A stretch of DNA of 64,000 nucleotides, taken from NCBI GenBank assembly GCA_018713055.1, contig DVFW01000042.1:5802-69801 (forward strand), read 5' to 3'. Positions 15,792 to 62,326 of the stretch are shown in pieces. The notes under the pieces are model-generated. The model was not told the origin of the DNA. It was given only the letters and a program-made list of their open reading frames with translations, and did no database searches. The position numbers were made by a program, and so were the translations under genes. The first letter of the stretch is position 1; the number at the start of each line of letters is the position of its first letter. This DNA comes from Candidatus Scatavimonas merdigallinarum (GTDB lineage: Bacteria; Bacillota; Clostridia; Oscillospirales; Acutalibacteraceae).

Positions 15792-16085
15792 CAAAGTTGT
15801 AAAAATTGTTAAAAAAAGCTTTGACAAAAGCAGGTACATGTAGTAGACTATATATTGTGGTTGAATGAAAAAGTTTTGCAGGGAACACTACATATTGTGC
15901 ATACATACGTTCGACTAACAAGCCGTAAAAAAATAGATAAAATTCAAAAAGTTACAAAAATAATACAAGGCAGTTTGCCACCTGAAATTACATAAAAAAT
16001 ACGTTTAAAACAGAAAAGAATATACAAAAATACGACTTCGTTTATATATTATAGGATGTTAAGGGTTTACATAGAGGTGTAAGGA

Positions 16086-39290: not shown

Positions 39291-39511
39291 ATCGTTTAAG
39301 GCTGCTCTCTTTGCTCACCAGTTTTGGTTTTAAAATTTTGTTTTGTACTTTCTGGCAACGTCTGTTAATGATGCCAAGCAGAATTTGGACAGCATTGGCT
39401 CCGGTTGCTTTGTATAAGCAAAACTTTTTGCCATAGGTTAACACCTTTTTGTTTTCATGGATTTGCATGCATTGTTTCTTGAAAAATAATGTTTTTGCCT
39501 AAATAGCAATC

Positions 39512-39548
39512 AAAAGTTGACCGATCCAGGTCAACTTTTTCTTTTTTT
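39512..39548 (+). terminator. Second terminator-like hairpin immediately upstream of the phage-like cluster
   Basis: AAAAGTTGACC-GATCCA-GGTCAACTTTT forms an 11-bp perfect stem followed by TCTTTTTTT. It lies 73 nt before the terS start. Confidence 0.6.
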
Positions 39549-39620
39549 AACCGTTTTATGTAAGAGGGGCGGCATACGTCAGCGCCTCCTTTTACGGGAA
39601 TAGCGAAAGGGGGATAAGGC

Positions 39621-40127
39621 GTGGAAAAAAATACGGTACAAAGGTTGACAAAACAGCAGCGTCTTTTTTGCCGGTGCTATGTCAATACCGGCAATGCCAG
39701 AGAAGCCGCCGTACAGGCCGGCTTTATCTCTGACGCACAGAAAAACGGAGAAGCACTTTTATGCAAAAGCGCAATTACAAAAGAGATTGCACGGTTGCTT
39801 AAGCAACGCAGAGAAATGCTTTCCTTGAAAGCGCTCAGCGGTTACGAACGACTGGCTTTTGGCAGCATTGCGGATGGTATTCGTCTGCTATATATAGAAG
39901 ATCCGCTGCAGACTGACCTGGAAAGTATGGACCTTTTTAATATTGCAGAAATAAAAAGGCCAAAAGACGGGGCTATGGAAATTAAATTTTTTGATCGGCT
40001 CAAGGCCCTTGAAAAGCTTATGCAGGCAAGAACAGAAGAAGATACGCCCTGTGTTCCGTTTTATGCGGCTTTACAACAGGGAGCGCAGGCGCTTGAAAGG
40101 TATGGCAATGAGAGGCTGGAGGAATAG
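39621..40127 (+). CDS. Phage terminase small subunit
   Basis: 168 aa, GTG start after AAGGGGGA. The segment LTKQQRLFCRCYVNTGNAREAAVQAGF is the HTH typical of Terminase_2/P27-type TerS. Confidence 0.75.
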   Translation: MEKNTVQRLTKQQRLFCRCYVNTGNAREAAVQAGFISDAQKNGEALLCKSAITKEIARLLKQRREMLSLKALSGYERLAFGSIADGIRLLYIEDPLQTDLESMDLFNIAEIKRPKDGAMEIKFFDRLKALEKLMQARTEEDTPCVPFYAALQQGAQALERYGNERLEE

Positions 40128-40130
40128 CCA

Positions 40131-41402
40131 TTGGAGTTTAAAGCTTTTTCTGAAAAACAGCTTCGTGTTTTGACATGGTGGTGTGAAAAAAGCAGGTATG
40201 CAAAAAAGGATGCAATTATTTGTGACGGCGCGGTAAGAAGCGGAAAAACCGTTTGCATGGGTATTTCTTTTATCGCATGGGCTTTTTACCGGTTTGACGG
40301 GGCAAATTTTGCAATGTGTGGGAAAACAATACGTTCTTTAAAAAGAAATGTGGTCACGGCAATTTTGCCCGTTTTAAAGCAGTTGGGTTTTGCCTGCACG
40401 GAAAAGCTGTCTCAAAACCTTTTAGAGGTCAGCATAGGCGGCCGTACAAACTGCTTTTATCTGTTTGGCGGGAGGGATGAATCTTCGGCTTCACTGATAC
40501 AGGGGATGACGCTTTCGGGCGTGCTGTTTGACGAAGTGGCGCTGATGCCCAAATCGTTTGTAGAGCAGGCGCTGGCAAGATGTTCTGTAGAAGGGTCCAA
40601 GTTTTGGTTCAATTGCAATCCACAATATCCGCAGCACTGGTTCAGACAGGAGTGGATTTTAGATAAAGCAGGAAAAAATGCGCTTTATATTCATTTTAAG
40701 ATGGAAGATAACCCCTCTCTTTCTCCTAAGATGCTTGCGCGCTACAAAAATCTGTATACAGGAACCTTTTACCAACGGTTTATTGAGGGAAAATGGGTGT
40801 CGGCACAAGGGCTGGTATACCCGTTTATGACCGCTGATAATATGTGTTGGGATACACCAAAAACAGACGCGGACGAGTTCGTGATTTCCTGCGACTATGG
40901 AACCGTAAACCCGGCTTCGTTCGGGTTGTGGGGTCATTACATAGATGGATGGTACAGAGTGGACGAGTATTATTATGACTCCAGAAAAGAGGGCGTGCAA
41001 AAGACAGATGAAGAACATTACCAGGGCTTATGCAGGCTTGCGCAGGAAAAGACTGTCCGCTGTGTAATTGTCGATCCATCTGCGGCAAGCTTTATGGAGG
41101 TTATACGCAGACATGGACGCTTCAAGGTATTGCCTGCAAGTAATTGTGTGCTGGACGGGATTCGCAGCGTTGCGAGCGCGCTGAAGCAGGGGGAAATTAA
41201 AATTTGCAAAAGCTGTACAGACGCTCTGCGGGAGTTTGGGCTTTACCGTTGGAAAGAGAACGGGCTGCACGATGCGCCTGTTAAAGAAAACGACCATGCC
41301 ATGGACGATATACGCTATTTTGTTTCAACCTATTTAAACCGGAGCGACGATGGTATATTTGCCATTGCCGCGCGACGCACAGGAGGTAAAGCGTGGGATT
41401 AA
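40131..41402 (+). CDS. Phage terminase large subunit (PBSX-like)
   Basis: 423 aa with Walker A DGAVRSGKT, Walker B LFDEV and a C-terminal RNaseH-like nuclease region (VIVDPSAASF...DHAMDDIRY). Confidence 0.85.
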   Translation: MEFKAFSEKQLRVLTWWCEKSRYAKKDAIICDGAVRSGKTVCMGISFIAWAFYRFDGANFAMCGKTIRSLKRNVVTAILPVLKQLGFACTEKLSQNLLEVSIGGRTNCFYLFGGRDESSASLIQGMTLSGVLFDEVALMPKSFVEQALARCSVEGSKFWFNCNPQYPQHWFRQEWILDKAGKNALYIHFKMEDNPSLSPKMLARYKNLYTGTFYQRFIEGKWVSAQGLVYPFMTADNMCWDTPKTDADEFVISCDYGTVNPASFGLWGHYIDGWYRVDEYYYDSRKEGVQKTDEEHYQGLCRLAQEKTVRCVIVDPSAASFMEVIRRHGRFKVLPASNCVLDGIRSVASALKQGEIKICKSCTDALREFGLYRWKENGLHDAPVKENDHAMDDIRYFVSTYLNRSDDGIFAIAARRTGGKAWD

Positions 41403-42601
41403 TAGATAGAAGAAAAAAGAAAAAACAAACTTTTTCCGCTGTGCAGACGGCCTGCACGGAGCGCCGCAGCGTGCATCCGTTTACAGAGTTCAACGGATAT
41501 ATACCGTTAAAGACGGCGCAGCACGGGTTATATGCCGCTATGCGGGAGGCAATCCCTATTGTTGACGCCGCAATTTTAAAAACGGTGCGGCTTGTGGGAG
41601 ACTTTACAGTGGAATGCCAGAGCTTGCAGGCGCAACGGCAGCTGGCTGATTTTTTAAAAAATGTGCAGGTAGGCGGATGTTCCCGCGGGATTGTGCCGTT
41701 TTTATCTTCTTATCTGGAGCAGATGCTGACCTATGGTACGGCGGCAGGGGAAATCGTATTATCGGCAGATGGGAGGTCGATTGGCGCGCTGTACAATGCA
41801 GATCTGGACAATATTGCGTTGCGGGCAGAGCAGAATCCACTGGAGGCAACGGTTTACTGCCGGGATGAAACAGGGCGCTGCATCCCGGCTCCATACCAGG
41901 CATTGCTTTGTGTGACGCCGTTAAACCCCAGGCCGGGAGCGCTTACAGGAACATCTGTACTTAGCGGACTGCCGTTTGTAAGCGGAATTCTTTTAAAAAT
42001 TCTGCATACGATCGGCCTCAATTGGGAACGTGTGGGGAATGTGCGCTTTGCGGTAACATATAAGCCCTCCGGGGATGTATCGGAACGCGCTTTTACAAAG
42101 GAGCGCGCGCAGCAGATTGCCGACCAGTGGGGGAAAGCCATGCGCAATACAGGGCAGATCAGTGATTTTATTTCGGTCGGAGATGTAAATATCCGGGTTA
42201 TTGGCGCAGACAACCAGGTGCTGGACAGCGAAGTACCAGTCAGGCAAATATTGGAACAAATTGTTGCAAAGCTTTCTATTCCTCCGTTTTTGCTTGGGCT
42301 TTCCTGGTCAAGCACAGAGCGGATGTCCAGCCAGCAGGCAGATATCCTGACCAGCGAGCTGGAATATTACAGAAATCTTTTAAACCCTGTTATTTGTAAA
42401 ATATGCAGCTTGTGGCTGCGGTTGCACGGCTTTGAAGAAACGTTTGAGGTGTGCTGGAACAATATCAATTTGCAAGATGAAGTAGAGCTTGCAAACGCAA
42501 GGCTTTTACGTGCGCAGGCAGAAAAAACAGAGCAAGAAACACAAGAGGGGATGAAAAATGAAACAGGGACAAATTATCAAGAGCGCGGCGCAGGCGCTTA
42601 A
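41393..42601 (+). CDS. Phage portal protein
   Basis: 402 aa immediately after terL, overlapping it by 10 nt. It has a portal-like core (IPPFLLGLSWSST...). The call rests on size and position. Confidence 0.7.
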   Translation: MGLIDRRKKKKQTFSAVQTACTERRSVHPFTEFNGYIPLKTAQHGLYAAMREAIPIVDAAILKTVRLVGDFTVECQSLQAQRQLADFLKNVQVGGCSRGIVPFLSSYLEQMLTYGTAAGEIVLSADGRSIGALYNADLDNIALRAEQNPLEATVYCRDETGRCIPAPYQALLCVTPLNPRPGALTGTSVLSGLPFVSGILLKILHTIGLNWERVGNVRFAVTYKPSGDVSERAFTKERAQQIADQWGKAMRNTGQISDFISVGDVNIRVIGADNQVLDSEVPVRQILEQIVAKLSIPPFLLGLSWSSTERMSSQQADILTSELEYYRNLLNPVICKICSLWLRLHGFEETFEVCWNNINLQDEVELANARLLRAQAEKTEQETQEGMKNETGTNYQERGAGA

Positions 42602-43532
42602 ACCGGAAGAGCTGGCGCAAATTCATACCTATACCCGCAGGGAAATGGCACAGGAAGAAATTTACACCTTTTCGGTTGTTTTATGCGACAACGATATTGA
42701 CCGCGATTTTGAATGCTTTGACGAGGAAGCGCTTTATACGCTTAAGAGACTTTTTGTGGGAAAAACAGGCATTTTTGACCACGACTTAAAAGCGGAAAAC
42801 CAAACGGCACGTATTTATGACTGCTATGTGGAACGGCTGCAGGACAAAAAAACACAGACAGGCAAGCCTTATATGCGTCTTGTGGGCAAGGCGTACCTGC
42901 CGCGTTGCGCAAAAAATGAGGATCTGATTCTGGCGTTGGACAGCGGTATCCAAAAAGAGGTCAGCGTAGGTTGCGCGATAAGCAGGCGTACATGCTCTGT
43001 TTGTGGGGAAGATATGGGCGCCTGTGCGCATCAAAAAGGCAAAAAGTACCGCGGACGGCTATGCTACGCTACATTAAGCGGCATAACGGACGCTTACGAG
43101 TGGAGTTTTGTCGCAGTGCCGGCACAAAGGCAGGCCGGTGTATTGAAAGCTTTAAAAAAAGAGGATATGGAGGGGAATACCTTGCAGAACATTATAAAAA
43201 GCCTTTGTGCGCAGCAGCCGGTTATGCTGTCTGCGCAGGACGCACAGGCATTATATGCACACATTCGCGGGCTGGAATGCGACGCAGGCTACGGAAGCGC
43301 TTACAGGCAGGAGCTAAAGGATGAGGTTGTCCGGCTGAGCATGCTGGTGCAGCCGGAAATTGCAAAGGAAACAATGCAAAGTTTAACCGAAAAAATGGAT
43401 ATAGAAGAGCTCAAGGCGTTTAAAAAAGGATATATGGAAAAAAGCGCAAAGGTTTTGCCGTTGCGGCCGCAGCTTTTTGGGCCCAGAGAAAGCGGGAAGA
43501 AGACGGAAGAAAATACCGATTATAAAATTTAA
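42558..43532 (+). CDS. Prohead protease-like N-terminal domain fused to a scaffold-like helical C-terminus
   Basis: 324 aa. The segment IYTFSVVLCDNDIDRDFECFDEEALYTLKRLFVGKTGIFDHD resembles the HK97-type prohead protease N-terminus. The C-terminal half is charged and helical. It lies between the portal and capsid genes. Confidence 0.5.
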   Translation: MKQGQIIKSAAQALKPEELAQIHTYTRREMAQEEIYTFSVVLCDNDIDRDFECFDEEALYTLKRLFVGKTGIFDHDLKAENQTARIYDCYVERLQDKKTQTGKPYMRLVGKAYLPRCAKNEDLILALDSGIQKEVSVGCAISRRTCSVCGEDMGACAHQKGKKYRGRLCYATLSGITDAYEWSFVAVPAQRQAGVLKALKKEDMEGNTLQNIIKSLCAQQPVMLSAQDAQALYAHIRGLECDAGYGSAYRQELKDEVVRLSMLVQPEIAKETMQSLTEKMDIEELKAFKKGYMEKSAKVLPLRPQLFGPRESGKKTEENTDYKI

Positions 43533-43646
43533 CGGATAAAACAGATCCGGCGGCAGGAAACGCGGCCCGTAAGGTGAAAAAGATTGCCTGAACCAGGCCG
43601 GGTTTGATTTTTCTATGTAAAAAAACAACGGAAAGGAAGCTAAAAA

Positions 43647-43982
43647 ATGAATGTGAGTTTTAACGGATATGATGAAAAAGTATTAACTTTTGTATGCACA
43701 GACAAGCTGGAAAAGGGTACGCCGGTAAAGCTTTCGGGCAACGGTACGGTTACGGCTTGTGCAGACGACGACGTATTTATTGGCATTGTGCTTTCTGTGC
43801 GGGACGGGTTTGCCGCTGTGCAAACAGGAGGCTATGTACAGCTGGTACCTTCCGGCAGTATTGCGATTGGGTATCAGAAAATTTCGGCTGCAACAGATGG
43901 CAAGGTCAAGGCGGACACAGACAATGGGCGTGAATATCTGGTGCTGCATACAGAGCAGGACAATGTAGGCGTCATTCTTTGA
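43647..43982 (+). CDS. Small head decoration / capsid cement-like protein (DUF2190-like)
   Basis: 111 aa, Gly/Val-rich and beta-type, directly upstream of the major capsid gene. Confidence 0.45.
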   Translation: MNVSFNGYDEKVLTFVCTDKLEKGTPVKLSGNGTVTACADDDVFIGIVLSVRDGFAAVQTGGYVQLVPSGSIAIGYQKISAATDGKVKADTDNGREYLVLHTEQDNVGVIL

Positions 43983-44010
43983 CAATAGGGATATAAGGAG
44001 GCAATAGATT

Positions 44011-45018
44011 ATGGCATTATATGAAACAATAGCGCTGGAAAAGGGTATGTACGGGGCAAGAGGAAAAAGCATGACGCAGGTATTGGAGGAGATGGATCCT
44101 TCAGAAAACTACCGCGACACACCTCTTGAAGGCTTGGACGCTTTTCAGCGACAGCTTAAACGGTTTGATATTAAGGTAAGCGGTGCGCATTCGGACAGTG
44201 TGGAAAAGTTTTTTCAGAGCAGTTCATCCGCGGCCCTTTTTCCGGAATATATAGGCCGCGCCGTTAAACAAGGGATGGAGGCGGCGGACATCCTTCCCAA
44301 TATCATTGCCGCGGTAACTAAAATTGAGGGAATGGATTACCGCAGCATTGTGTCTACACCCACACAGGACGACAAGGAATTAAAGCCGGTGGCAGAGGGC
44401 GCAATGATTCCGCAGACTGTAGTAAAAACACAGGAAAACCTGGTGAAGCTTCATAAAAGAGGCAGAATGCTGGTATCTTCCTATGAAGCGCTGCGTTTTC
44501 AGAGGCTGGATCTGTTTACCGTAACGCTGCGGCAGATCGGTGCGTATATTGCAAGGGCGCAGTTGAAAGACGCGGTAAATGTACTGCTAAACGGCGACGG
44601 AAACAGCAACCCGGCCGGTGCAGTTGCGGCTGACGGCGAAACGCTTGCATACAGCGACCTGCTAAAGCTTTGGGGCGCGCTTTCCCCCTATGAGCTTAAT
44701 ACTATTTTGGCTCCAACGGCGGTCGTCCAGAAGATTTTGGCCATGACGCAAATGCAGGACGCACAGGCGGGGCTGACATTTCAGGGGACAGGTAAAATGG
44801 TAACGCCTATGGGCGCCACACTGTTGCACGTACCTTCTATTGAAGGAAATACGATTATTGGGCTTGATAAAAACTGCGCGCTGGAAATGGTGCAGGCAGG
44901 GGAGGTCATCACCGATTATGACAAGCTGATTGACCGGCAGCTGGAACGCGCTACAATCAGTTGTATTGCCGGGTTTGCCAAAATTTTTACTGACTCTGCC
45001 AAAAAGCTTACATTTTAA
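44011..45018 (+). CDS. Major capsid protein
   Basis: 335 aa with a strong AAGGAGG RBS. Called from position after protease/decoration and from size. No motif check is possible by eye. Confidence 0.7.
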   Translation: MALYETIALEKGMYGARGKSMTQVLEEMDPSENYRDTPLEGLDAFQRQLKRFDIKVSGAHSDSVEKFFQSSSSAALFPEYIGRAVKQGMEAADILPNIIAAVTKIEGMDYRSIVSTPTQDDKELKPVAEGAMIPQTVVKTQENLVKLHKRGRMLVSSYEALRFQRLDLFTVTLRQIGAYIARAQLKDAVNVLLNGDGNSNPAGAVAADGETLAYSDLLKLWGALSPYELNTILAPTAVVQKILAMTQMQDAQAGLTFQGTGKMVTPMGATLLHVPSIEGNTIIGLDKNCALEMVQAGEVITDYDKLIDRQLERATISCIAGFAKIFTDSAKKLTF

Positions 45019-45035
45019 CACATGGGGGCGGCGGT

Positions 45036-45398
45036 ATGAACTTTAAAGAGGTATATGAACGTTTTTTATTGATTGCGGATATGGATCAGGAAGAGGGTTC
45101 TAAGTGGGCCGTACTGTGCAACGAAGCAATAGAGGATATACAGAATATGTGCAAAAGCGGTACGGATATACAGTTAAACGGCAGGCGGCTTTCAGCCGCT
45201 GCCGCTGCCCTGGCGTTTTATAAAATGGCGCTTATGCAAAACGCTGCAGAGGACGTTTCTTCTTTTAAAGCGGGCGACATAAGCATTCAAATGGGAAGTC
45301 GCTGTACAAAAGCGCAGCAGGCCTGGCTGTGTGCAAAAGCGCATATCAGCGACCTGATACGCGACGAAGATTTCCTTTTTGAACAGGTGACAATATGA
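45036..45398 (+). CDS. Head-tail connector (gp6-like) protein
   Basis: 120 aa, helical, first gene after the capsid gene. Confidence 0.45.
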   Translation: MNFKEVYERFLLIADMDQEEGSKWAVLCNEAIEDIQNMCKSGTDIQLNGRRLSAAAAALAFYKMALMQNAAEDVSSFKAGDISIQMGSRCTKAQQAWLCAKAHISDLIRDEDFLFEQVTI

Positions 45399-45787
45399 AC
45401 ACGTATACGATGAAAACCATACAAAGGTTGATTAAAACTTTTGGAAATACAATTGAGGTACTGCTGGACGGACAGCTGCAGGAAACGGGAAGAGCGTTTA
45501 TACAGCCTTTGCGCTATAAGAACAAGATTTATCTAGATGGCTATTATTTGCCGCCGGGCTATTGCGACGGGGGACATTTTCTTTATATAGGTCCACCTGA
45601 TATTCATTTTGTACGCCCGTATGAAAATCTTGTGATCCGATGTGAAGAGCTAAGTGAAAGCTATACGGTTAAGCGTGCGGAAACATATAAATTTGCAGGC
45701 AGACCCGTTTATGTATGGGCTGTGCTTACGCCCTGCACTGCCGATTTGGAAGAAAGCGCGCAGAGTCGACAGGAGGGAGCGGTATGA
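45395..45787 (+). CDS. Head closure / head-tail adaptor-like protein
   Basis: 130 aa, beta-rich, coupled by ATGA overlaps on both sides. Confidence 0.4.
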   Translation: MNTYTMKTIQRLIKTFGNTIEVLLDGQLQETGRAFIQPLRYKNKIYLDGYYLPPGYCDGGHFLYIGPPDIHFVRPYENLVIRCEELSESYTVKRAETYKFAGRPVYVWAVLTPCTADLEESAQSRQEGAV

Positions 45788-46554
45788 AAACGGCGCAGGA
45801 AACCGTGCAATCTGTTTTAGAATGGCTAAAAACCGGGGATGAACTGCAGGAGGTTTCTTTTGTTCCGTCTTACCAAAGCAAAAGCTTTGCAGTTCCGGTA
45901 AAAAAGCCAGTGGCTGCGGTAGGGAAGCACAGTATTTTTGCCTGTGCAGAGGCCAAAAGCAGCGAAATACAGGCGGTACAGGAAAAAGGGCTTAGGATCG
46001 CTGTGGATGTATTTGTCCCTGTTCTGGATGGCGGCGAGGCCTGCGCGCAACTGCTGGATAAAATAAGCGCCAGGCTTCTGGAGCATGTACAGGAAGGCCG
46101 GTATGAGATCAAAACGGGCGCAGTACAATATCAGAGCAGCACAGGTGCATTTACAGCACAGCTTCTGCTTACCATCATGCAGATACAGGCGGCCCAGCAG
46201 GAAGCAGACAAGAGAAATGTGGTTATGCATGTAAACGGCGCCCGGTTTTATGCGCAAAATGTAACGGTAACAGAAACAGAAGACCTGTACCCGATAGAGT
46301 GTTATGGGGAAAGGGTGCCGTATGCTTCAATCAACCGCGGACGGCGCTATGAAGTTATGATTCAAAAACCTGTAACAAAGGACAATCTCTCGGAAGCGTT
46401 TACACAGATAAATGCAACGGTATCTGTACGCAATGCAGGCGGCGGCATTTATCTGTATGGGTGTAATGTAAAGCGTATAGAAAGCCATGTGGAAAACGGG
46501 CTTTATTATATGGATACGATTGTACTGACGGCACAAAGAAAAGAAACCGTATAG
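45784..46554 (+). CDS. Neck/tail-terminator-like N-terminal half fused to a beta-rich, possibly tube-like C-terminal half
   Basis: The ATG at 45784 overlaps the previous stop. The 256-aa product sits where tail completion, sheath and tube genes sit in Mu/PBSX-type modules. Assignment is by position only. Confidence 0.3.
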   Translation: MKTAQETVQSVLEWLKTGDELQEVSFVPSYQSKSFAVPVKKPVAAVGKHSIFACAEAKSSEIQAVQEKGLRIAVDVFVPVLDGGEACAQLLDKISARLLEHVQEGRYEIKTGAVQYQSSTGAFTAQLLLTIMQIQAAQQEADKRNVVMHVNGARFYAQNVTVTETEDLYPIECYGERVPYASINRGRRYEVMIQKPVTKDNLSEAFTQINATVSVRNAGGGIYLYGCNVKRIESHVENGLYYMDTIVLTAQRKETV

Positions 46555-46567
46555 AAAGGGGCGTAAA

Positions 46568-46726
46568 ATGGAAACGCAGACAAAATATACAGCTGTACAA
46601 CAGGAACTGTCCCAACGGTATATGGAGCAAGCGGAAAACGCAAGGTTGTTGTCGGATGTTTTCGAACGCGACAGCCGCCGTTACTCAAATACGCTCAAAG
46701 AAGAAGAGGAGGTGCAGGCTCTGTGA
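46568..46726 (+). CDS. 52-aa helical micro-protein in the tape-measure position
   Basis: Hand translation gives METQTKYTAVQQELSQRYMEQAENARLLSDVFERDSRRYSNTLKEEEEVQAL*. Its stop overlaps the GTG start of the LysM gene. It falls below the ORF-track cutoff. Confidence 0.45.
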   Translation: METQTKYTAVQQELSQRYMEQAENARLLSDVFERDSRRYSNTLKEEEEVQAL

Positions 46727-47247
46727 ACCACCCACCTATACGGTACAGAGGCGTAGAACTGCACCATAATCCTAAAAGCATACAAATTGAAGAGAACAAA
46801 AGCTATAGCGAACATTTTTTTGTCAACGCCCTCGGGGCGGTGCAGGAATCCGGAAGAAAGGCGCGGGTTGTGTCAGGAGAAGGGGAATTCTTTGGAAAGG
46901 ATTGCCTTACGCAATATAATGCGGTATTGGAGTTGTTTACAAGCAGAGAAGGCGGGCTTTTGTCTGTAAGCGGCTATACGCCCTTTTATGCGCGTTTTGT
47001 TTTATTTACGCTGACACAGCCGCCTCTGGAAAATTTTTTAAGTTACCGTTTTGTTTTTATAGAGGACATGTCGCTGATGCCGCAGGGAATAAAAGTCAGA
47101 CAGCAGACCCATACGGTAACGGAAAACCAAACGCTTTGGGATATTGCTTACCTGTATGGTATACCGGTAGAGTCGCTTTTGATAAATAATCCCGGGATAA
47201 GCAGGCCAGATGCACTGACAAGCGGACAAGAGGTGAAACTTTTATGA
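46723..47247 (+). CDS. LysM-domain tail protein (XkdP / Mu gp43 / P2 gpX-like)
   Basis: 174 aa with a C-terminal LysM domain: HTVTENQTLWDIAYLYGIPVESLLINNPGISRPDALTSGQEVKL. Confidence 0.7.
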   Translation: MNHPPIRYRGVELHHNPKSIQIEENKSYSEHFFVNALGAVQESGRKARVVSGEGEFFGKDCLTQYNAVLELFTSREGGLLSVSGYTPFYARFVLFTLTQPPLENFLSYRFVFIEDMSLMPQGIKVRQQTHTVTENQTLWDIAYLYGIPVESLLINNPGISRPDALTSGQEVKLL

Positions 47248-48185
47248 CTTTTACGGCAATTACCGCCGACAGAAAAATGTTTACGCTTTGCAGTCCGCTG
47301 TCCTGTTGTATGGAATATGAGCAGGGGATACCGGCAGACGCTTTAACAGCCGCGTTTCCTTACAGATCCGACATACCGCAGCTTGCGTATATTGTGGTGC
47401 AGAAGGATAAAAAGCCTGTTTTTACAGGCGTAATTGACGAACAGCGCTTTTTATCTGTAGAAGGAGAAGGCATGGTTATGCTTTCTGCCAGAAGCCTGGC
47501 GGCGCTGCTGCTGGACAATGAAGCAATGCCGCAAAACTATAACAACCCGGATGCCCAGACAATTTTTTTGCGGCATATACAACCTCTTGGCATTACACAG
47601 TACAGCTGCGAAAAAAAACCAAGAGCAGCAAGCTTTACGGTGGATAAGGGGTCGACGCATTGGCAGGTTCTTGAAAGTTTTTGCAGGGTTTGTCTGGACA
47701 GTTACCCTGCAGTGGATGAAACCGGACGTGTATGTATGTGCGGACGTCCGGGCGGGGAAAACGCGCTTTTGTTTGCAAATACAGGCGAAGGAATCCGTTT
47801 TACCAGGTTTGAAAAAACAGTGAAACGGTGCAAGCGACTGTCGGAAGTGCTTGTAAAAACATCTGTAGACGGCGCCTATTCGACGCCGGTGCGAAACGCC
47901 GTCGCCCTTTCAGAAGGCGTTATAAGGCGGCGGTATTTAAATGCATCGGAACTGTCTGGGAACAGTGTATTGGACGCAGATAAAATGATCCGGGAAGGGG
48001 AGTATGCATCGGTTGAAATTACACTTAGCTGCCCCAGTCCCCTTTTAGGGTGTATGGGACGTACCGCACGGATTCTGTATGGAGAAGAAACATACGACGG
48101 ATTATATATTAGCGGGCTGCAGTATACCTGTGCACGGGAAGAGGAAAAAACGGTTCTGTTATTTTCAAAATACAGGAAGGAATAA
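47244..48185 (+). CDS. Baseplate hub / late control gpD-like protein (XkdQ / Mu gp44-like)
   Basis: 313 aa. Position and size match the gene that follows the LysM protein in PBSX/Mu modules. Confidence 0.55.
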   Translation: MTFTAITADRKMFTLCSPLSCCMEYEQGIPADALTAAFPYRSDIPQLAYIVVQKDKKPVFTGVIDEQRFLSVEGEGMVMLSARSLAALLLDNEAMPQNYNNPDAQTIFLRHIQPLGITQYSCEKKPRAASFTVDKGSTHWQVLESFCRVCLDSYPAVDETGRVCMCGRPGGENALLFANTGEGIRFTRFEKTVKRCKRLSEVLVKTSVDGAYSTPVRNAVALSEGVIRRRYLNASELSGNSVLDADKMIREGEYASVEITLSCPSPLLGCMGRTARILYGEETYDGLYISGLQYTCAREEEKTVLLFSKYRKE

Positions 48186-48189
48186 AATT

Positions 48190-48537
48190 ATGTGGCTTTT
48201 AAAAAATATGGCGCAAAATGGAAGGACAGAGAAAAAAGCAGATAAAGGAAAAATATCGTCTGTATCTCAATCTTTTGTTACGGTACAAACAGCGCTTGAA
48301 CATCGGAAAATTCCAGTGGTCTGTCCATATGGGCTTGCATATGTACCGGCCCCGGGGGAAGAGTGTGTAACGCTTCCTCTGCAAAACGGGCAAATCTGCA
48401 TTGGTGCTCCCGTAAAAGACAAGGAGTTGCAGCCGGGGGAAATTATGCTGTATTCTGCCGGCGGCGCGACGTTGGTTTTAAAAAATGACGGAACGATTTT
48501 GGCGAATGGAAAAGTCCTGGAAAGCGGGGATGGATAA
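48190..48537 (+). CDS. Baseplate spike / assembly protein V-like (XkdR / Mu gp45-like)
   Basis: ATG at 48190, 115 aa. The segment PGEIMLYSAGGATLVLKNDGTILANGKV resembles the gpV/gp45 N-terminal OB region. Confidence 0.5.
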   Translation: MWLLKNMAQNGRTEKKADKGKISSVSQSFVTVQTALEHRKIPVVCPYGLAYVPAPGEECVTLPLQNGQICIGAPVKDKELQPGEIMLYSAGGATLVLKNDGTILANGKVLESGDG

Positions 48538-48885
48538 ATGGATACAGCATTAAATGACGCTGGGGATTTTGCTCTGGACGGCAGAGGAATGCCTTATCTT
48601 TTGAGCGGCCTTGCGGAACTAATGCAGCGGGTGAAGCTGTGTTTACAGATCAAAAAGGGAAGTTTTCTTTATGACCGCAACCTGGGGTCGGAACTTCATA
48701 CCTTGGAGCACGGCACGGAGCTTTTGCAGCAGAGAGCGCAGATGCTTGTATATGAAGCGGTTGCCGCGGTGCCGCAGGTCAGGCTTTACAACATTCAGGC
48801 TGATTTTCCTCAGGACGGCCCTTTGAAATTATCACTCGATATTGATTTTGCCGGCGAAACGGGAACGCTGGAGGTGACGCTTTAA
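48538..48885 (+). CDS. Baseplate wedge protein gpW/gp25-like (XkdS-like)
   Basis: 115 aa with typical size and position directly upstream of baseplate J. Pattern: LLQRAQMLVYEAVAAVPQVRLYNI. Confidence 0.55.
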   Translation: MDTALNDAGDFALDGRGMPYLLSGLAELMQRVKLCLQIKKGSFLYDRNLGSELHTLEHGTELLQQRAQMLVYEAVAAVPQVRLYNIQADFPQDGPLKLSLDIDFAGETGTLEVTL

Positions 48886-49955
48886 TGGACAGCTATCAGG
48901 AAATTTTGGACAGAATGAAAGAAAAATATAAGGAACTCAGCGGATATGACGCCGACGGGGCGTCGGACATTGGTATACGAATGCAAGTGCTTGCAGGCGA
49001 AGTTTTTTCGCTGAATTGCTATGCACAGTGGATGATCAGACAAATGTTCCCGCAAACGGCGCAGGGGCAACAGCTGGATTATCATGCGCTTGAGCAGGGG
49101 CTTACCAGAAAACCCGCAATTGCGGCAAAGGGGACTTTGTCTTTTTATCTGGAAGAGGCGGCCGGCGAGGACATACAGATTCCTGCCGGTACGGTGTGCG
49201 CAACGGCGGGCGAAGACGCCATGCGTTTTGTAACAACACAGGACGCGACGCTTTCTCAGGGAAGCATTGTGGCAGCCGTTCCGGCTGCGGCGCAGGAAGA
49301 AGGAGCAAAGGGAAATGTGGCGCCCCAGAGTATAAGCGTCATGGTCACACCGCCGGCGGGGATTGCTTATGTAAAAAATACCGTTCCTTTTACAGGCGGA
49401 GAAGACGAAGAGACAGACGAACATCTGCGGCGGCGCATATTGGAAAATCTGCGAAATCCGCCGCGCGGGACAAACAGTGCTTTTTATAAACAGGCAGCTG
49501 AAAGCGTAGACGGCGTATATTCTGCCGGCGTAGCGCCGAAGGCGCGCGGGACGGGAACCGTTAATGTATATATTGCAAAACAGGGGACGGCGGCGCCGCA
49601 ATCGCTTGTGGAGCAGGTACAGGAAAAATTGGAGGCGGAAAGGGAAATTAACGTGGACGTCCTTGTGGCGTCTGCACAGGCGGTTCCGTATGATGTACAT
49701 GCTGAAATAGAGATTGCAGACGGATATACATGGAGTACAATAGAAAGCCAGTGCGAGCAGGCAATTCGTGCGTATTTTGATACAGTCGGCGTTGGACAGG
49801 CGGTACGGACTTCTGGTATAGGCGAGGCAATTTTTCACGTGGCGGGAGTAAAAAGCTATATTTTTGACGATTATTATACAAACGATATACAGGCGCTTGC
49901 ATCCCAGCTTTATGTAGTCAGAAATATTGTATTGACAGAAAGAGGGAGTACATAA
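48885..49955 (+). CDS. Baseplate J-like protein (XkdT / Mu gp47 / P2 gpJ)
   Basis: 356 aa. N-terminus YQEILDRMKEKYKELSGYDADGASDIGIRMQVLAGEVF is typical of the Baseplate_J family. Confidence 0.75.
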   Translation: MDSYQEILDRMKEKYKELSGYDADGASDIGIRMQVLAGEVFSLNCYAQWMIRQMFPQTAQGQQLDYHALEQGLTRKPAIAAKGTLSFYLEEAAGEDIQIPAGTVCATAGEDAMRFVTTQDATLSQGSIVAAVPAAAQEEGAKGNVAPQSISVMVTPPAGIAYVKNTVPFTGGEDEETDEHLRRRILENLRNPPRGTNSAFYKQAAESVDGVYSAGVAPKARGTGTVNVYIAKQGTAAPQSLVEQVQEKLEAEREINVDVLVASAQAVPYDVHAEIEIADGYTWSTIESQCEQAIRAYFDTVGVGQAVRTSGIGEAIFHVAGVKSYIFDDYYTNDIQALASQLYVVRNIVLTERGST

Positions 49956-50521
49956 TGGGCGCAGTGGCATCTATGATCCAAAAACTTGCGCCGCTTGGTG
50001 TTTATGCACTGCAACAGAACAGCGCGGTTTATAAAGAACTGTGCGCGTATGCGGCGGCTCTGGATATCCTTGAAGCAACGCTTTTGCAGGCACAGCAGGA
50101 ATGCTTTATTTGTACGGCGCAATCATACGGGTTGTCGCATAGAGAGATTAATATAGGGCCGGTCAGGGAAGAACTTACCCTGGAAAAACGCAGAGAAATG
50201 TTGTTGTCCAGAGCGGCTCTAAAGCAGGACGATTTTAATAGAAGCGGCGTCGAACAGATGTTAAGTGCGCTTGGACTGGAATTTACGCTTTTTGAGCTTC
50301 CACATCAGCAAACGCTCCATATTGATTGTAAAGGCAGCTATACGCAGGCACAGCGCAAATGGATTTCTTCGCAGGCAATTGCGCAGCTTCCTGCGCATCT
50401 GGATGTGCTTTTGGACTTTAGAAACCTGCAATGGAGCACAATTGATGCAAAAAACCTGACGTTTGCTTCTATGGACGCCAAAGCAATGACATGGAAACAG
50501 ATTGAGAGCTACGGAGTATGA
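49955..50521 (+). CDS. Baseplate/tail protein gpI-like (XkdU / Mu gp48, DUF2313-like)
   Basis: 188 aa. N-terminus KLAPLGVYALQQNSAVYKELCAYAAALDILE resembles YmfQ/XkdU-type proteins. It follows the J gene. Confidence 0.6.
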   Translation: MGAVASMIQKLAPLGVYALQQNSAVYKELCAYAAALDILEATLLQAQQECFICTAQSYGLSHREINIGPVREELTLEKRREMLLSRAALKQDDFNRSGVEQMLSALGLEFTLFELPHQQTLHIDCKGSYTQAQRKWISSQAIAQLPAHLDVLLDFRNLQWSTIDAKNLTFASMDAKAMTWKQIESYGV

Positions 50522-50539
50522 TGAAAGGAAGGACAGAAA

Positions 50540-51004
50540 ATGGCATCTTCAGAAAAAACGGCAAATTTGGGGTTGAACCTGTGGGAACCGGAAGATAAAC
50601 CGATCAGGGCCGACTTTGTGGCTGATAACCAGCTGATTGATCAGGTAGTCGGTACACATACAAAAAATTCCAATATCCACATAACAGCGTCGGAAAAAAC
50701 AAAGCTCAACGAGCCTTATCAGGTAAAAATGTTTGCCGGAACAGGAAGCGCCAGTTTTACCTATACGTTCGATTTTTCCCCTAAATTTGTAGTGGTCTAT
50801 AAAAAGAACGCCCCCATGTTTGTGTATAGTGGCGGCGCAAGTGTTATAAACGGGGCGCTTGCAGCCTCTGTTTATGGCGCGACGCAGGGCGCGCAGCTAA
50901 ATGCGAACAAGCTGACGCTGACGCAACAATCTGCGTCGGTCAACGGCATACGCTGCAATTTAAATGAAGAAGACGGACAGTATGTAATTGTGGCGTACCG
51001 GTGA
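50540..51004 (+). CDS. Short tail-fibre / receptor-binding-like protein
   Basis: 154 aa. N-terminus KTANLGLNLWEPEDKPIRADF is the baseplate-attachment motif common at tail-fibre N-termini. The remainder is beta-rich. It is the last gene before the terminator. Confidence 0.45.
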   Translation: MASSEKTANLGLNLWEPEDKPIRADFVADNQLIDQVVGTHTKNSNIHITASEKTKLNEPYQVKMFAGTGSASFTYTFDFSPKFVVVYKKNAPMFVYSGGASVINGALAASVYGATQGAQLNANKLTLTQQSASVNGIRCNLNEEDGQYVIVAYR

Positions 51005-51069: not shown

Positions 51070-51882
51070 TTAGCGGTCTTTTCGGTCCGCACCCAGGTCG
51101 ATATCAATTTCTGCCGTATCGTATTTTTGCAGTTTGTTCTTTTTAGGCTGATAAATCGTTTTAGAAGGGGCTTTTCCCTGTAAACGGCCACGTCTGCCGC
51201 CAGAGGCTGCGGCAAGCATTTTTCTGCGTTTGTTTATACAGGTAAATACTACGCAGATGACGCCGATTACTGCGCCCACAATCATGGCAACGCCTAAATA
51301 CAGCATCCACTGAAAGGTGGTCTCGTCATCTGCCGATTTGTTGTTTTTTATAAAGTTAAAATCGTTTGTACCATCCATACTTCCGGAAAAATCAAGCGCC
51401 ATTTCCCAGTCGGAAGCATCCAGCTCGTTTGTATCGACCGATTTGCTTACGTCATACAATTCGTTGGGGGCACTGGAAACGGAGCCGTCATTATTATAGT
51501 CTGCATAGCCATCGTCCGATGAAGTGGAATAACCGTCTGGCGACGGTTCCACAAAAGAAAAATTGTTCTGATATGAATCGTCATAGTAGTCATCGTAATC
51601 GTTGTAGTCATTATAATCGTTGTATGAGGAAGTTTGGCCGCTGGAATCCGGTTGAGAATCGTAGTTGTCTTCAACAGTGCTGGAATCCGGCAATGGCTCC
51701 GGCTGCGGCGGCTCTGTCTGCGATTCGACACCGCTGTCAGAGTATGTGGGGTCTTCATAAATATCATCCGGTTCTCCAACCACGTTGCTGCTGTCTGTCA
51801 CGGCAGCTGCATAGTAGCTGCAAAGACAGGCCAGAAAAACGGGAAGGAGCAATTGCACAAATATACGCAGGCGTTGTTTCAT
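51070..51882 (-). CDS. Signal-peptide plus C-terminal TM-anchored protein with an Asp/Tyr/Asn/Ser-rich low-complexity ectodomain
   Basis: ATG at 51882, 8 nt after GGAGG. N-terminal signal-like helix. Low-complexity runs include NDYNDYNDYDDYYDDSYQNN. TM helix WMLYLGVAMIVGAVIGVICVVF, then a basic tail. Confidence 0.6.
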   Translation of the reverse strand: MKQRLRIFVQLLLPVFLACLCSYYAAAVTDSSNVVGEPDDIYEDPTYSDSGVESQTEPPQPEPLPDSSTVEDNYDSQPDSSGQTSSYNDYNDYNDYDDYYDDSYQNNFSFVEPSPDGYSTSSDDGYADYNNDGSVSSAPNELYDVSKSVDTNELDASDWEMALDFSGSMDGTNDFNFIKNNKSADDETTFQWMLYLGVAMIVGAVIGVICVVFTCINKRRKMLAAASGGRRGRLQGKAPSKTIYQPKKNKLQKYDTAEIDIDLGADRKDR

Positions 51883-52021
51883 TTGCCATGCCTCCAAAAA
51901 AGATTAATACGACTTATAATACCACACAATGGACAAATTTTTCAATACAGATGCAGATTTTCAATTGTTTTTCTGCAAACTGTGCAGTAAAAACCGGTTA
52001 ACAGAAAGCAATAACGGCATA

Positions 52022-59689: not shown

Positions 59690-62326
59690 ATGAGCCATAA
59701 GTATGTTTATCTTTTCTCCGAAGGCGACGAAACCATGAGAGAGCTTCTTGGCGGAAAAGGCGCGAACCTTGCCGGCATGGTCAAGCTTGGTATGCCGGTT
59801 CCTCAGGGTTTTACGGTTTCTACAGAAGCCTGTACCCGTTATTATGAAGATGGAAGAAAAATCGGCGCAGATATTGAAGAGCAGATCTATCAGGCACTGG
59901 CAAAGGTCGAAGAGATCAACGGCAAAAAATTTGGCGACACAAAAAATCCGCTGCTTGTATCTGTCCGCAGCGGTGCAAGAGCGTCTATGCCGGGTATGAT
60001 GGACACGATTTTGAACCTGGGCTTGAACGACGACGTTGTCGCCGGCCTGATTGCGGGCAATCCGGATCCTAAATTTGAGCGGTTTGTGTATGACTCCTAC
60101 CGCCGTTTTATCCAGATGTTCTCCGACGTTGTTATGGAAATTTCCAAAAAGCGTTTTGAGGTTATCATTGACGAAGTAAAAGAAAAGAAAGGCATTAAGG
60201 ACGACATTGATCTGGATGCCGACGATATGAAGCAGCTGGTTGTTCTGTTTAAGGACTTTTACAGGCAGGAAAAGGGCGAGGATTTCCCGACTGATCCAAA
60301 AGTACAGATGATGGAGGCTGTAAAGGCTGTTTTCCGTTCTTGGGACAACCCCCGCGCAAACGTATACCGCCGTATGAACGATATCCCCTATTCCTGGGGT
60401 ACCGCCGTCAACGTACAGCCCATGGTGTTTGGTAACCTGAATGAAAACTCAGGTACGGGCGTTGCTTTTACGCGCGACCCTGCAACGGGCGAAAAAGCGC
60501 TGTTTGGCGAATACCTTATCAACGCGCAGGGTGAAGACGTTGTTGCCGGTGTACGTACACCCAGCCATATTACAAAGCTTGCGGAAGACATGCCCGAGGT
60601 GTACAAGCAGTTTGTAGATATTGCAAACCGGCTGGAAAAGCATTACAGAGATATGCAGGATATGGAATTTACCATTGAAAACGGAAAACTTTATATGCTG
60701 CAGACGAGAAACGGCAAGAGAACCGCTGCGGCGGCGCTGAAAATAGCAGTGGACCTTGTAAAAGAAGGCATGATTACAGAGGAAGAGGCTGTTTTGCGCG
60801 TTGACCCCAAGCAGCTTGACGCATTGCTCCACCCGCAGTTCGACGCAAGTGCATTGAAGGCCGCAACGCCGATTGGCAAGGGCTTGGCTGCATCTCCCGG
60901 CGCTGCATGCGGTAAGGTTGTGTTTACTGCCGAAGACGCCAAAACGTGGGTTGAAAAGGGCGAAAAAGTTGTTTTGGTCCGTTTGGAAACTTCCCCGGAA
61001 GACATTGAAGGCATGAATGCTGCTGAAGGTATTTTGACCGTGAGGGGCGGTATGACCTCCCACGCTGCCGTTGTTGCGCGTGGTATGGGTACCTGCTGTG
61101 TTTCCGGCTGCGGTGAGATCAGCATTGACGAAGAAGCAAAAATGTTTACCCTTGGCGGCAAGACGATTAAAGAAGGCGACTATATATCTCTCAACGGTTC
61201 AACCGGCGACATTTACGGCGAAGCCATCCCCACAGTGGACGCTGCAATTGTAGGCGATTTTGACGTGTTTATGAAGTGGGCGGACGCGGCCAGAACGCTG
61301 AAGGTAAGAACAAATGCGGACAACCCCCGCGACACGGCACAGGCTGTAAAATTTGGCGCGGAAGGCATTGGCCTTTGCCGCACCGAGCACATGTTCTTTG
61401 AAGGCGACAGGATTAAGGCGATCCGTGAAATGATCGTCTCCGACACGGTAGAAGAAAGAAAGAACGCACTTGCGAAAATTATGCCGTACCAGCAGGGCGA
61501 CTTTGAAGCCATGTACAGGGTGCTGGAAGGGCGTCCCATGACGATCCGCTTCCTTGACCCCCCGCTGCATGAATTTGTTCCTACAAAGGAAGAAGATATT
61601 GTAGAGCTTGCAAAAGAAATGAACATTACGGTTGAGCACCTGAAAAGCGTGATCAGCGGCCTGCACGAGTTTAACCCGATGATGGGCCACCGCGGCTGCC
61701 GTCTGGCGGTAACGTACCCGGAAATTGCAGAAATGCAGACGACTGCCGTAATCAACGCGGCGATCACGGTTAATAAAGAACATCCGGAATACAACATTGT
61801 GCCGGAAATCATGATTCCGCTGGTAGGCGAGCTCAAAGAGCTCAAGTATGTAAAGGATGTTGTAACGGCAACGGCCGACAAGCTGATTGCAGAAGCGGGC
61901 GTGAACATGCAGTACCATGTGGGTACGATGATCGAAATCCCAAGGGCTGCGCTTACCGCGGACGAAATTGCAAAAGAAGCAGAATTCTTCAGCTTTGGTA
62001 CAAACGATCTGACGCAGATGACCTTTGGCTTCAGCCGTGACGACGCCGGCAAGTTCTTGGATGCATACTATGAAAAGAAAATCTACGAATTTGACCCGTT
62101 TGCGAAGCTTGACCAAACAGGCGTTGGCAAACTGGTAAAGATGGCGGCCGAGCTTGGCAGAGCAACGCGCCCGGATATTAAGCTGGGTATTTGCGGCGAG
62201 CACGGCGGTGATCCTTCTTCTGTTGAGTTCTGCCATAATGTTGGCCTCAACTATGTATCCTGCTCCCCGTTCCGCGTGCCGATCGCACGTCTGGCTGCAG
62301 CACAGGCTGCTATTAAAAGCAAATAA
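59690..62326 (+). CDS. ppdK: Pyruvate, phosphate dikinase
   Basis: 878 aa starting LGGKGANLAGM, with the phosphohistidine site GGMTSHAAVVARG and a C-terminal PEP-utilising TIM barrel (GICGEHGGDP). Confidence 0.95.
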   Translation: MSHKYVYLFSEGDETMRELLGGKGANLAGMVKLGMPVPQGFTVSTEACTRYYEDGRKIGADIEEQIYQALAKVEEINGKKFGDTKNPLLVSVRSGARASMPGMMDTILNLGLNDDVVAGLIAGNPDPKFERFVYDSYRRFIQMFSDVVMEISKKRFEVIIDEVKEKKGIKDDIDLDADDMKQLVVLFKDFYRQEKGEDFPTDPKVQMMEAVKAVFRSWDNPRANVYRRMNDIPYSWGTAVNVQPMVFGNLNENSGTGVAFTRDPATGEKALFGEYLINAQGEDVVAGVRTPSHITKLAEDMPEVYKQFVDIANRLEKHYRDMQDMEFTIENGKLYMLQTRNGKRTAAAALKIAVDLVKEGMITEEEAVLRVDPKQLDALLHPQFDASALKAATPIGKGLAASPGAACGKVVFTAEDAKTWVEKGEKVVLVRLETSPEDIEGMNAAEGILTVRGGMTSHAAVVARGMGTCCVSGCGEISIDEEAKMFTLGGKTIKEGDYISLNGSTGDIYGEAIPTVDAAIVGDFDVFMKWADAARTLKVRTNADNPRDTAQAVKFGAEGIGLCRTEHMFFEGDRIKAIREMIVSDTVEERKNALAKIMPYQQGDFEAMYRVLEGRPMTIRFLDPPLHEFVPTKEEDIVELAKEMNITVEHLKSVISGLHEFNPMMGHRGCRLAVTYPEIAEMQTTAVINAAITVNKEHPEYNIVPEIMIPLVGELKELKYVKDVVTATADKLIAEAGVNMQYHVGTMIEIPRAALTADEIAKEAEFFSFGTNDLTQMTFGFSRDDAGKFLDAYYEKKIYEFDPFAKLDQTGVGKLVKMAAELGRATRPDIKLGICGEHGGDPSSVEFCHNVGLNYVSCSPFRVPIARLAAAQAAIKSK

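Follow-up and report, generated by a model that had tools for sequence, protein, structure and literature searches.

The DNA analysed here, hereafter the window, is a 64,000-nucleotide stretch of contig DVFW01000042.1 from Candidatus Scatavimonas merdigallinarum. At positions 39621–51004 (~11 kb), it holds 17 tightly packed genes on the + strand that make up a phage-type head and baseplate set. The capsid protein encoded in this cluster is an exact match to HIQ81201.1, from a metagenome-assembled genome (MAG) of Ca. Scatavimonas merdigallinarum, and the cluster is best read as a phage-derived operon that is now maintained by this host, a member of the Oscillospiraceae. The interval between the neck genes and the gene for a LysM protein, which opens the baseplate block, is the focus of this report. 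An earlier note on this DNA had claimed that sheath, tube and tape measure are replaced in this interval by a fusion-like 256-amino acid (aa) open reading frame (ORF) and a 52-aa ORF, possibly leaving an ultra-short tail.

The two ORFs, p256 (45784–46554) and p52 (46568–46726), were confirmed as the only ones between the neck genes and the LysM gene. A mechanical ORF list begins p256 at 45715 (279 aa), while orthologs and a Shine-Dalgarno sequence favour the start at 45784 (256 aa). Sheath, chaperone and long tape measure genes were found neither in the cluster nor elsewhere in the 64-kb window, where ten of the other long ORFs were scanned. For comparison, the annotated records of the reference myophages phiCD27, phiOH2 and Lietuvens, chosen among the strongest Baseplate_J matches in a phage database, were inspected; sheath, tube, chaperone and a tape measure of 752–1429 aa are encoded directly before their LysM genes. 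As these phages fill the slot with a full tail set, the interval in the window is truly short. The best Baseplate_J phage matches are only ~30% identical, and no closely related complete prophage was found on which a deletion could be mapped.

Upstream of p256 lie the genes for a120 (120 aa, 45036–45398), a presumed head–tail adaptor, and a130 (130 aa, 45395–45787), a presumed stopper or tail-completion protein. Both assignments are positional. Both genes are present in 66/66 related loci, these being the loci in which both capsid and LysM genes are present; their naming as head–tail adaptors in the earlier note is in keeping with this neck position, but no family or solved-structure match accompanies it. 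For a120, there was no Pfam, PHROG or PDB sequence match, and profile searches with a130 gave no PDB or Pfam match. Gene overlaps had been reported at both ends of the interval, and both are present in the sequence (ATG 45784–45786 with TGA 45785–45787; GTG 46723–46725 with TGA 46724–46726). The ATGA overlap is absent in the orthologous locus L001, where a 21-nucleotide (nt) gap takes its place; the GTG/TGA overlap between the micro-ORF and the LysM gene is kept in relatives with called genes. Shine-Dalgarno-like sequences lie upstream of each start.

The p256 fusion and the p52 micro-gene

An AlphaFold2 model of full-length p256 (predicted local distance difference test, pLDDT, 81.5) comprises two domains connected by a low-confidence linker at residues 137–143. 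The N-terminal domain (residues 1–140, 45784–46203), when modelled alone (pLDDT 87.9; predicted template modelling score, pTM, 0.82), matched mostly tail terminators in Foldseek, with 2gjv, lambda gpU, T5 p142, the collars of pyocin R2 and diffocin, and the Mu terminator among the top hits. The monocin cap, the neck of SaPI1/80alpha and the gateway proteins of E217 and Pa193 were also retrieved. The C-terminal domain (residues 141–256 plus the stop codon, 46204–46554) was recognized by profile: an alignment of 24 diverse members matched the phage 812 tail tube (8q01_A) with a whole-sequence E = 3.1e-7. The match is near full length, with profile positions 3–106 corresponding to chain residues 12–130, and the invariant Gly-Cys of the profile aligns with the GC motif of the tube. 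An XkdM-related protein and the phiCD508 tube were matched weakly; the domain matched no Pfam family. Foldseek queried with the full-length model retrieved tube, terminator and Hcp folds. An hhalign comparison of the two domains revealed no internal duplication of p256, and hhalign comparisons of the C-terminal domain with three XkdM-type tubes, and of the N-terminal domain with products of genes that precede the sheath gene in two phages, were uninformative.

p256 joins two proteins in one, with a tail terminator as its N-terminal half and a tail tube protein as its C-terminal half. The structure test proposed in the earlier note, a gpU-like fold in the first half and a tube in the second, came out as predicted by Foldseek and by the 812 profile match, respectively. 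The ‘fusion-like’ ORF is a true fusion, as its halves are separate adjacent genes in 36/66 related loci. The assertion that the tube had been replaced fails, given that the tube is kept as the C-terminal half of p256.

The breadth of the p256 family depends on the search used. A word-indexed search with p256 recovered near-identical proteins only; the wider full-length family, ~240–280 aa in length with homologues down to 21–32% identity, was found by an exhaustive HMMER search. A narrow p256 alignment used as the query matched one GTDB genome, and a tblastn search with p256 against 50,697 phage records gave no match even at E = 10. In BFVD, the best matches to the full-length model were two-domain ‘tail proteins’ of 260–380 aa from uncultured human-gut ‘Siphoviridae sp. 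ct…’ entries (e.g. A0A8S5QY21), which may be further members of the fusion family deposited as phage proteins.

The 52-aa p52 sits in the tape measure position and overlaps the start of the LysM gene. It matched no Pfam or PHROG family. A hidden Markov model (HMM) of the micro-ORF detected it in 62/66 loci, in every architecture class and always directly upstream of the LysM gene, with a core motif of [LF]E[RQ][DE]SRRY[SP]..L.EEEE and a variable N-terminal part. The micro-ORF is 30–53 aa long in most loci, a few of them with an ambiguous start codon, and in p52 the ratio of nonsynonymous to synonymous substitution rates (dN/dS) is 0.17. The micro-ORF is a real gene. Its length loosely tracks the number of tube-like domains, being mostly 41–53 aa with two such domains versus ~30–46 aa with one or none, in classes that are phylogenetically non-independent; the L007 lineage runs against the trend, with a 37-aa micro-ORF beside a fused protein. 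By eye, p52 displays a hydrophobic stripe at i+3/i+4 spacing (Y7, V10, L14, Y18, A25, L28 and F32). On the basis of its position, we hypothesize that p52 is a remnant tape measure, or ‘miniature ruler’, or else a plug of the channel.

Slot states and selection across related loci

The IMG/VR capsid-protein scan returned more than 486 relatives, and capsid-protein relatives overall form more than 8,000 clusters at 90% identity, the named ones being from Ruminococcus and Acutalibacteraceae. A sheath or tape measure gene was found in the head–LysM slot of none of the 66 loci. The distance from the end of the capsid gene to the start of the LysM gene is 1.46–1.71 kb in most of them, 1.03–1.13 kb in six and 0.79–0.85 kb in another six, with a maximum of 1.71 kb. 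Using HMMs of the two p256 halves, the slot could be classified into four states. Terminator (135–180 aa) and tube (116–154 aa) are encoded by two separate adjacent genes in 36/66 loci, which include the Ruminococcus bromii type, and are fused as in the window in 18/66. The tube domain is fused to the C-terminus of a130, with the terminator absent, in 5/66 loci; the remaining 7/66 possess neither half in the available locus sequence.

Gene content and order are conserved well beyond close relatives. Loci of the sister lineage, including L001 and L006 (Ca. Scatovicinus merdipullorum), have all 17 genes of the window cluster in unchanged order, with p256 86–87% identical. The distant lineage L007, L009 and L010 is gene-for-gene colinear at 22–24% identity for p256 and 65–66% for the capsid protein. 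Comparison of the window with L001 yielded dN/dS values of 0.04–0.18 in 17/17 genes at dS ~0.4, with 0.18 for p256 and 0.17 for p52 (dS 0.41–0.45); by these values, all 17 genes are under purifying selection. The R. bromii/Ruminococcoides capsid-protein cluster comprises 2,189 member sequences, on contigs of up to 2.39 Mb, and the R. bromii loci lie at one common chromosomal site.

A repeated motif was noticed in the L007/L009/L010 lineage. The 31-nt sequence TTGG[CT]ACAGAT.TA.ACGA..GCAGTGCAGG occurs in at least three + strand copies within a 1.4-kb stretch without called genes upstream of terS (L007:2796–3970; L009:1–186 and 11501–11602; L010:79–109). On visual inspection, each copy comes after a terminator-like hairpin; the window does not contain the motif.

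Nine contigs of 56–114 kb from IMG/VR sample 3300045988 (L032, L052, L055, L056, L064, L069, L071, L074 and L077) encode capsid proteins 67–72% identical to that of the window, and otherwise have at most the gene in the protease/scaffold position in common with it. They were considered as tailed relatives and rejected: the capsid-flanking genes of L032 are unrelated and include functions in nucleic-acid metabolism, its capsid neighbours being a DHH phosphoesterase, a tRNA-His guanylyltransferase and a primase-like protein, so that these contigs are of no help in mapping the loss of tail genes. One contig has the capsid gene twice, as L071 and L074, with ~12 kb between the copies.

Head, baseplate and chromosomal surroundings

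The operon is preceded by a leader (39462–39539, + strand) with a promoter-like site at 39462–39490, located by consensus scan, and a strong hairpin with a T-run at 39512–39539. The hairpin is a perfect palindrome followed by the T-run, AAAAGTTGACCGATCCAGGTCAACTTTTTCTTTTTTT (region 39462–39620). The hairpin and its 3′ flank are 100% identical in L001, despite a coding dS of ~0.4. The leader matched no Rfam family; its hairpin could be an attenuator or operator of the operon.

The first gene encodes the small terminase subunit, TerS (168 aa, 39621–40127), which matches positions 1–127 of 141 of the Pfam Terminase_2 model (E = 5.8e-17). It is followed by the large subunit, TerL, of the PBSX family (423 aa, 40131–41402; NCBIfam TIGR01547, E = 3e-54, full length; Pfam Terminase_6N). 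The portal protein (402 aa, 41393–42601) matches Pfam Phage_portal at E = 2e-6, under the curated cut-off, and its orthologs in L007 bear a precomputed Phage_portal match. A 324-aa protein in the protease/scaffold position (42558–43532), placed by position and kept in all relatives, and a 111-aa head-module protein (43647–43982), the gene for which is conserved across relatives, matched no family. The major capsid protein (335 aa, 44011–45018) possesses the HK97 fold (Pfam Phage_capsid_4, PF25209, E = 7e-17). TerS, the PBSX-type TerL, the portal and the HK97-type capsid protein are together predicted to furnish a complete DNA-packaging head.

Downstream of p52, the LysM protein (174 aa, 46723–47247) occupies the Mu gp43/XkdP position and matches Pfam LysM (E = 1.5e-8) and, at a borderline level, DNA_circ_N (E = 5.8e-4). 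Its profile retrieved LysM domains only from the PDB, and it is presumed to be a tube initiator with a peptidoglycan-binding C-terminus. The baseplate hub of the Mu gp44 type (313 aa, 47244–48185; 3d37_A, E = 1.4e-7, 3cdd and 1wru; PHROG 177, baseplate hub, E = 7e-13) is followed by a small Mu gp45-like spike or plug (115 aa, 48190–48537), assigned by a weak Phage_Mu_Gp45 match (E = 0.018), PHROG 25991 (E = 9e-14) and position. Three wedge proteins then follow: a gp25/gpW-like protein of the ‘sheath initiator’ family (115 aa, 48538–48885; Sheath_initiator, E = 7.5e-5, under the cut-off; PHROGs 120 and 43, baseplate wedge), a Baseplate J-like protein (356 aa, 48885–49955; Pfam Baseplate_J, E = 1.4e-57; PHROG 6, E = 4e-75) and a Mu gp48/P2 gpI-like protein (188 aa, 49955–50521; Phage_Mu_Gp48, E = 2.3e-6; PHROG 521). 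By gene content, the Mu/PBSX-type baseplate is complete, from the LysM protein through the gp44-like hub and gp45-like spike to the gp25-, J- and gp48-like wedges; for the gp25- and gp45-like proteins, both under the Pfam cut-offs, PHROGs and position back the assignment. Podovirus-type nozzle or knob families were not detected in the cluster, the distal end of which is this Mu/PBSX-type baseplate. A 362-aa antisense ORF (48882–49970, − strand), which spans the entire Baseplate_J gene, is almost certainly spurious.

The last gene (154 aa, 50540–51004) matched no family; from its position, it possibly encodes a fibre or receptor-binding protein. Homologues are present in L001 and the L007 lineage, and none was found in the R. 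bromii clusters (L092–L094), where the operon ends at the gp48-like gene (15763–16281). The R. bromii fibre or receptor-binding protein is probably encoded elsewhere in the genome.

Genes for an integrase, replication, repressor or lysogeny functions, a holin or an endolysin were found neither in nor beside the cluster in the window, L001, L007 and the R. bromii loci L092–L094; in all of these, the flanking genes are host genes. Ten other long ORFs of the window were scanned and all proved to be host housekeeping genes, for MutS2, UvrC, a penicillin-binding protein, FtsW, MurG, MurA, FtsQ, FtsZ, Mfd and PPDK. GerA and PALP genes lie upstream of the element in the window and in L001 alike. In the window, 8.7 kb separate the pyruvate phosphate dikinase (PPDK) gene (59690–62326, + strand) from the element, and in R. 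bromii (L092:16735–19362, − strand) the gene adjoins it, a proximity across genera that hints at an old common chromosomal neighbourhood. Composition likewise resembles the host, with a GC content of 0.480 for the element versus 0.474 for the host and host-like tetranucleotide usage. The vertical inheritance and purifying selection typical of gene transfer agents are seen in the flanks and gene order of L001, the dN/dS values, the PPDK neighbourhood and the composition. In combination, the genomic features of the cluster are those that typify a domesticated, gene-transfer-agent-type element. Directly downstream of the element (51070–51897, − strand), a 275-aa protein without a Pfam match has a very acidic, repetitive stretch rich in Asp, Tyr and Asn (…YNDYNDYNDYDDYYDDSY…) and a C-terminal hydrophobic segment.

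A predicted near-tail-less particle and its alternatives

Taken together, we propose, with a probability of roughly 0.6, that the operon encodes an almost tail-less, DNA-carrying, gene-transfer-agent-like particle, known from its genes alone, in which a myovirus-derived baseplate sits on a tail of about one ring. With respect to the parts of a contractile tail, the tube, the terminator (by fold) and the baseplate core are present, while sheath and tape measure are missing. The ‘ultra-short tail’ of the earlier note remains, on sequence, fold and comparative genomics, the best-supported reading, with the correction that the tube was not replaced. Because p256 contains one terminator and one tube domain, the two would be made in equal copy numbers; a terminator caps a tube as a single ring, from which we infer that the fused lineages build one tube ring. 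The a130–tube fusions lead to the same one-ring conclusion, and where both halves are lost, the neck would have to dock straight onto the LysM initiator ring.

The particle would be ordered as head and portal, a120, a130, terminator ring, one hexameric tube ring, LysM initiator ring, and hub with spike, with a wedge ring around them. Its tail would be non-contractile, of roughly podovirus length and with a tip of the myovirus type, and the micro-peptide, as what remains of a tape measure, would lie along the short channel or block it. The operon would then act like a gene transfer agent, with headful packaging of DNA and with release by a lysis directed from elsewhere in the genome. A gene transfer agent function is suggested because integration, replication, lysis and lysogeny genes are lacking, the flanks are of host origin, the composition is host-like and selection is purifying.

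Several observations weigh against this proposal. For the whole family, particle, packaging and transfer are predicted from genes, and the sequence inspected spans 20–64 kb around each element. The N-terminal domain of p256 gave no sequence-level PDB or Pfam match in profile searches; because terminators and tubes have a common fold, its modelled identity as a terminator draws on the Foldseek ranking together with gene order (terminator, [sheath], tube). The 36 loci with two separate genes contain nothing that would hold the tube to a single ring. The micro-ORF is missing in 4/66 loci, in two of which (L060 and L066) the fusion gene abuts the LysM gene, and its HMM matched neither the tape measure C-termini of three reference phages nor any ORF of four reference phage regions. 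The near-full Terminase_2 match of TerS would be compatible with sequence-specific packaging. The gp25-like ‘sheath initiator’ protein is kept though there is no sheath, the R. bromii clusters have no fibre gene and therefore need parts from other loci, and no peptidoglycan hydrolase is encoded in the cluster, which leaves DNA passage across the Gram-positive wall without explanation.

Some of these observations would be accounted for if sheath, additional tube and tape measure were supplied in trans, by another chromosomal locus or by a helper phage, so that a normal contractile tail is assembled from a split gene set. The gp25-like protein and a complete contractile-type wedge are kept, the R. 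bromii clusters without a fibre gene indicate that some parts are encoded elsewhere, missing genes could lie beyond the 20–64 kb inspected, and the published gene transfer agent FpGTA of Faecalibacterium prausnitzii is itself split over two loci (Borodovich et al., Nat Commun 2026, PMC12946183). We nonetheless regard supply in trans as quite improbable. The terminator–tube (18 loci) and a130–tube (5 loci) fusions hold tube and neck at a 1:1 ratio, seven loci have no tube gene in the available locus sequence, and the conserved micro-ORF fills the tape measure slot beside the LysM gene; the missing genes are found in the slot of no relative, and the 64-kb window contains no sheath gene. A decaying prophage, in which the interval is a deletion scar, p256 a chance fusion and p52 a spurious ORF, would explain why the slot lacks genes common to every reference myophage and why the two ORFs match no curated family. 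This reading is already contradicted and deserves hardly any credence: p256 and p52 evolve at dN/dS 0.18 and 0.17 (dS 0.41–0.45) among 17/17 intact genes, full-length p256 homologues extend down to 21–32% identity, both halves are independent conserved genes in 36 loci, and the micro-ORF motif recurs in 62/66. Pseudogenes, truncated genes, relaxed selection and patchy conservation, the marks of a degraded prophage, were not observed. The deletion scar, which the earlier note had named as the outcome that would overturn its idea, is refuted by the family-wide arrangement and the purifying selection.

An autonomous or satellite-like mobile element, such as a minimal phage or a capsid-forming island, with its own ~11-kb DNA instead of host DNA as cargo, is likewise unlikely. 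Hundreds of relatives are listed as viral contigs in IMG/VR, TerS matches most of the Terminase_2 model, and the Logan contigs L010 and L011, each of 11,282 bp and from at least two different samples, hold just the element. These contigs have no terminal overlap, however, and their identical lengths may reflect an assembly break at flanking repeats, or coverage of the element that differs from that of its flanks. In L009, an imperfect 102-nt direct repeat lies on both sides of the element, but its two copies share no more than 86% identity, and L007 has the motif upstream only. The integrase, replication and regulation module of a cfPICI-like satellite was not found beside the cluster in four lineages, nor were lysis genes found in or beside it. 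L001 has the GerA/PALP flank of the window, the R. bromii loci lie at one chromosomal site, the PPDK gene is nearby across genera, and the composition resembles the host, all of which argue against a mobile element.

The gene-transfer-agent-like particle can be compared with known systems. Clusters of the RcGTA type are ~11–15 kb long with ~17 genes, encode head, packaging and tail functions only, are vertically inherited under purifying selection, and have their other functions encoded elsewhere; the RcGTA tail is of the siphovirus type and comprises tube, tape measure and a distal-tail/hub/megatron tip. The element resembles alphaproteobacterial RcGTA in its size and gene number, its head, packaging and tail-only content, its vertical inheritance and its purifying selection. 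It differs in its contractile-type baseplate, which lacks a sheath, and in a tube of about one ring at most.

A precedent closer to the host is FpGTA, the 40-nm particles of which have no visible tail and carry 8.4–8.9 kb of host DNA (PMC12946183). Like FpGTA, the element belongs to gut Clostridia, a group for which FpGTA is the published near-tail-less gene transfer agent, and both encode phage structural genes only. The proteins are unrelated. FpGTA possesses an N4-gp56 capsid protein, a Prp protease, a podovirus tail nozzle and BppU-like fibres, encoded in two operons with a holin and an endolysin, while the element combines an HK97/PF25209 capsid protein with a Mu/PBSX-type baseplate in one operon. 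Identity with FpGTA is rejected on these protein families. From Nanopore sequencing of virus-like particles in faeces, the same study reported packaging of the gene transfer agent type, with main peaks at 4.1–6.3 kb, in CAG-115, Onthomonas, UBA11524, R. callidus, HGM11616 and QANA01, the locus not being assigned, and a secondary peak at 5.95 kb for an R. bromii MAG (PMC12946183).

We tentatively suggest, as a possibility we hold less firmly than not, that the family represents undescribed and very widespread gene transfer agents of gut Oscillospirales (R. bromii, Acutalibacteraceae and chicken-gut Oscillospiraceae), with a new type of tail as delivery device, in which a sheathless contractile-type baseplate joins the neck through zero to one tube ring, and with lineages at successive stages of tail loss, and that it may explain the 4–6-kb signals of human faecal viromes. 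A published description of the family was not found in the literature covered, which excludes most subscription journals. The family is common in gut Oscillospirales; were the operon the source of the signals in PMC12946183, it would be a candidate for a major route of gene flow among keystone fibre degraders of the gut. R. bromii can be cultured, which makes the idea directly testable.

The element also bears upon tail architecture. Tailed phages are conventionally divided by tail into three types, contractile, long non-contractile and short. In the element, a baseplate of the contractile type appears to function with no sheath and with about one ring of tube. The two-gene, fused, half-lost and fully lost lineages constitute a natural series for asking what role the gp25/J/I wedge and the hub have without contraction, and the family allows one to ask whether a peptide of 30–50 residues can replace a tape measure. 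In characterized tails, terminator and tube are separate proteins, with 6 terminator subunits versus hundreds of tube subunits. Unlike the terminators and collars of lambda (gpU), T5 (p142), pyocin R2 and diffocin, and the tube of phage 812/K, the element has both in one polypeptide.

Among phage modules, those of the PBSX/phiCD27/phiOH2 type (XkdK–XkdU) are alike in their TIGR01547 large terminase, and PBSX is also a chromosomal element with phage structural genes. The order common to this type and the element is terminator, tube, [tape measure], LysM (XkdP-like), hub, small spike, gp25-like, Baseplate_J and gp48/DUF2313-like. In contrast to the PBSX type, the element has no sheath, no XkdN-like chaperone and no tape measure of 750–1400 aa, its terminator and tube are fused, and lysis and regulatory genes are not adjacent. 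By profile, its tube domain matches the phage 812/K type clearly and XkdM-related proteins weakly.

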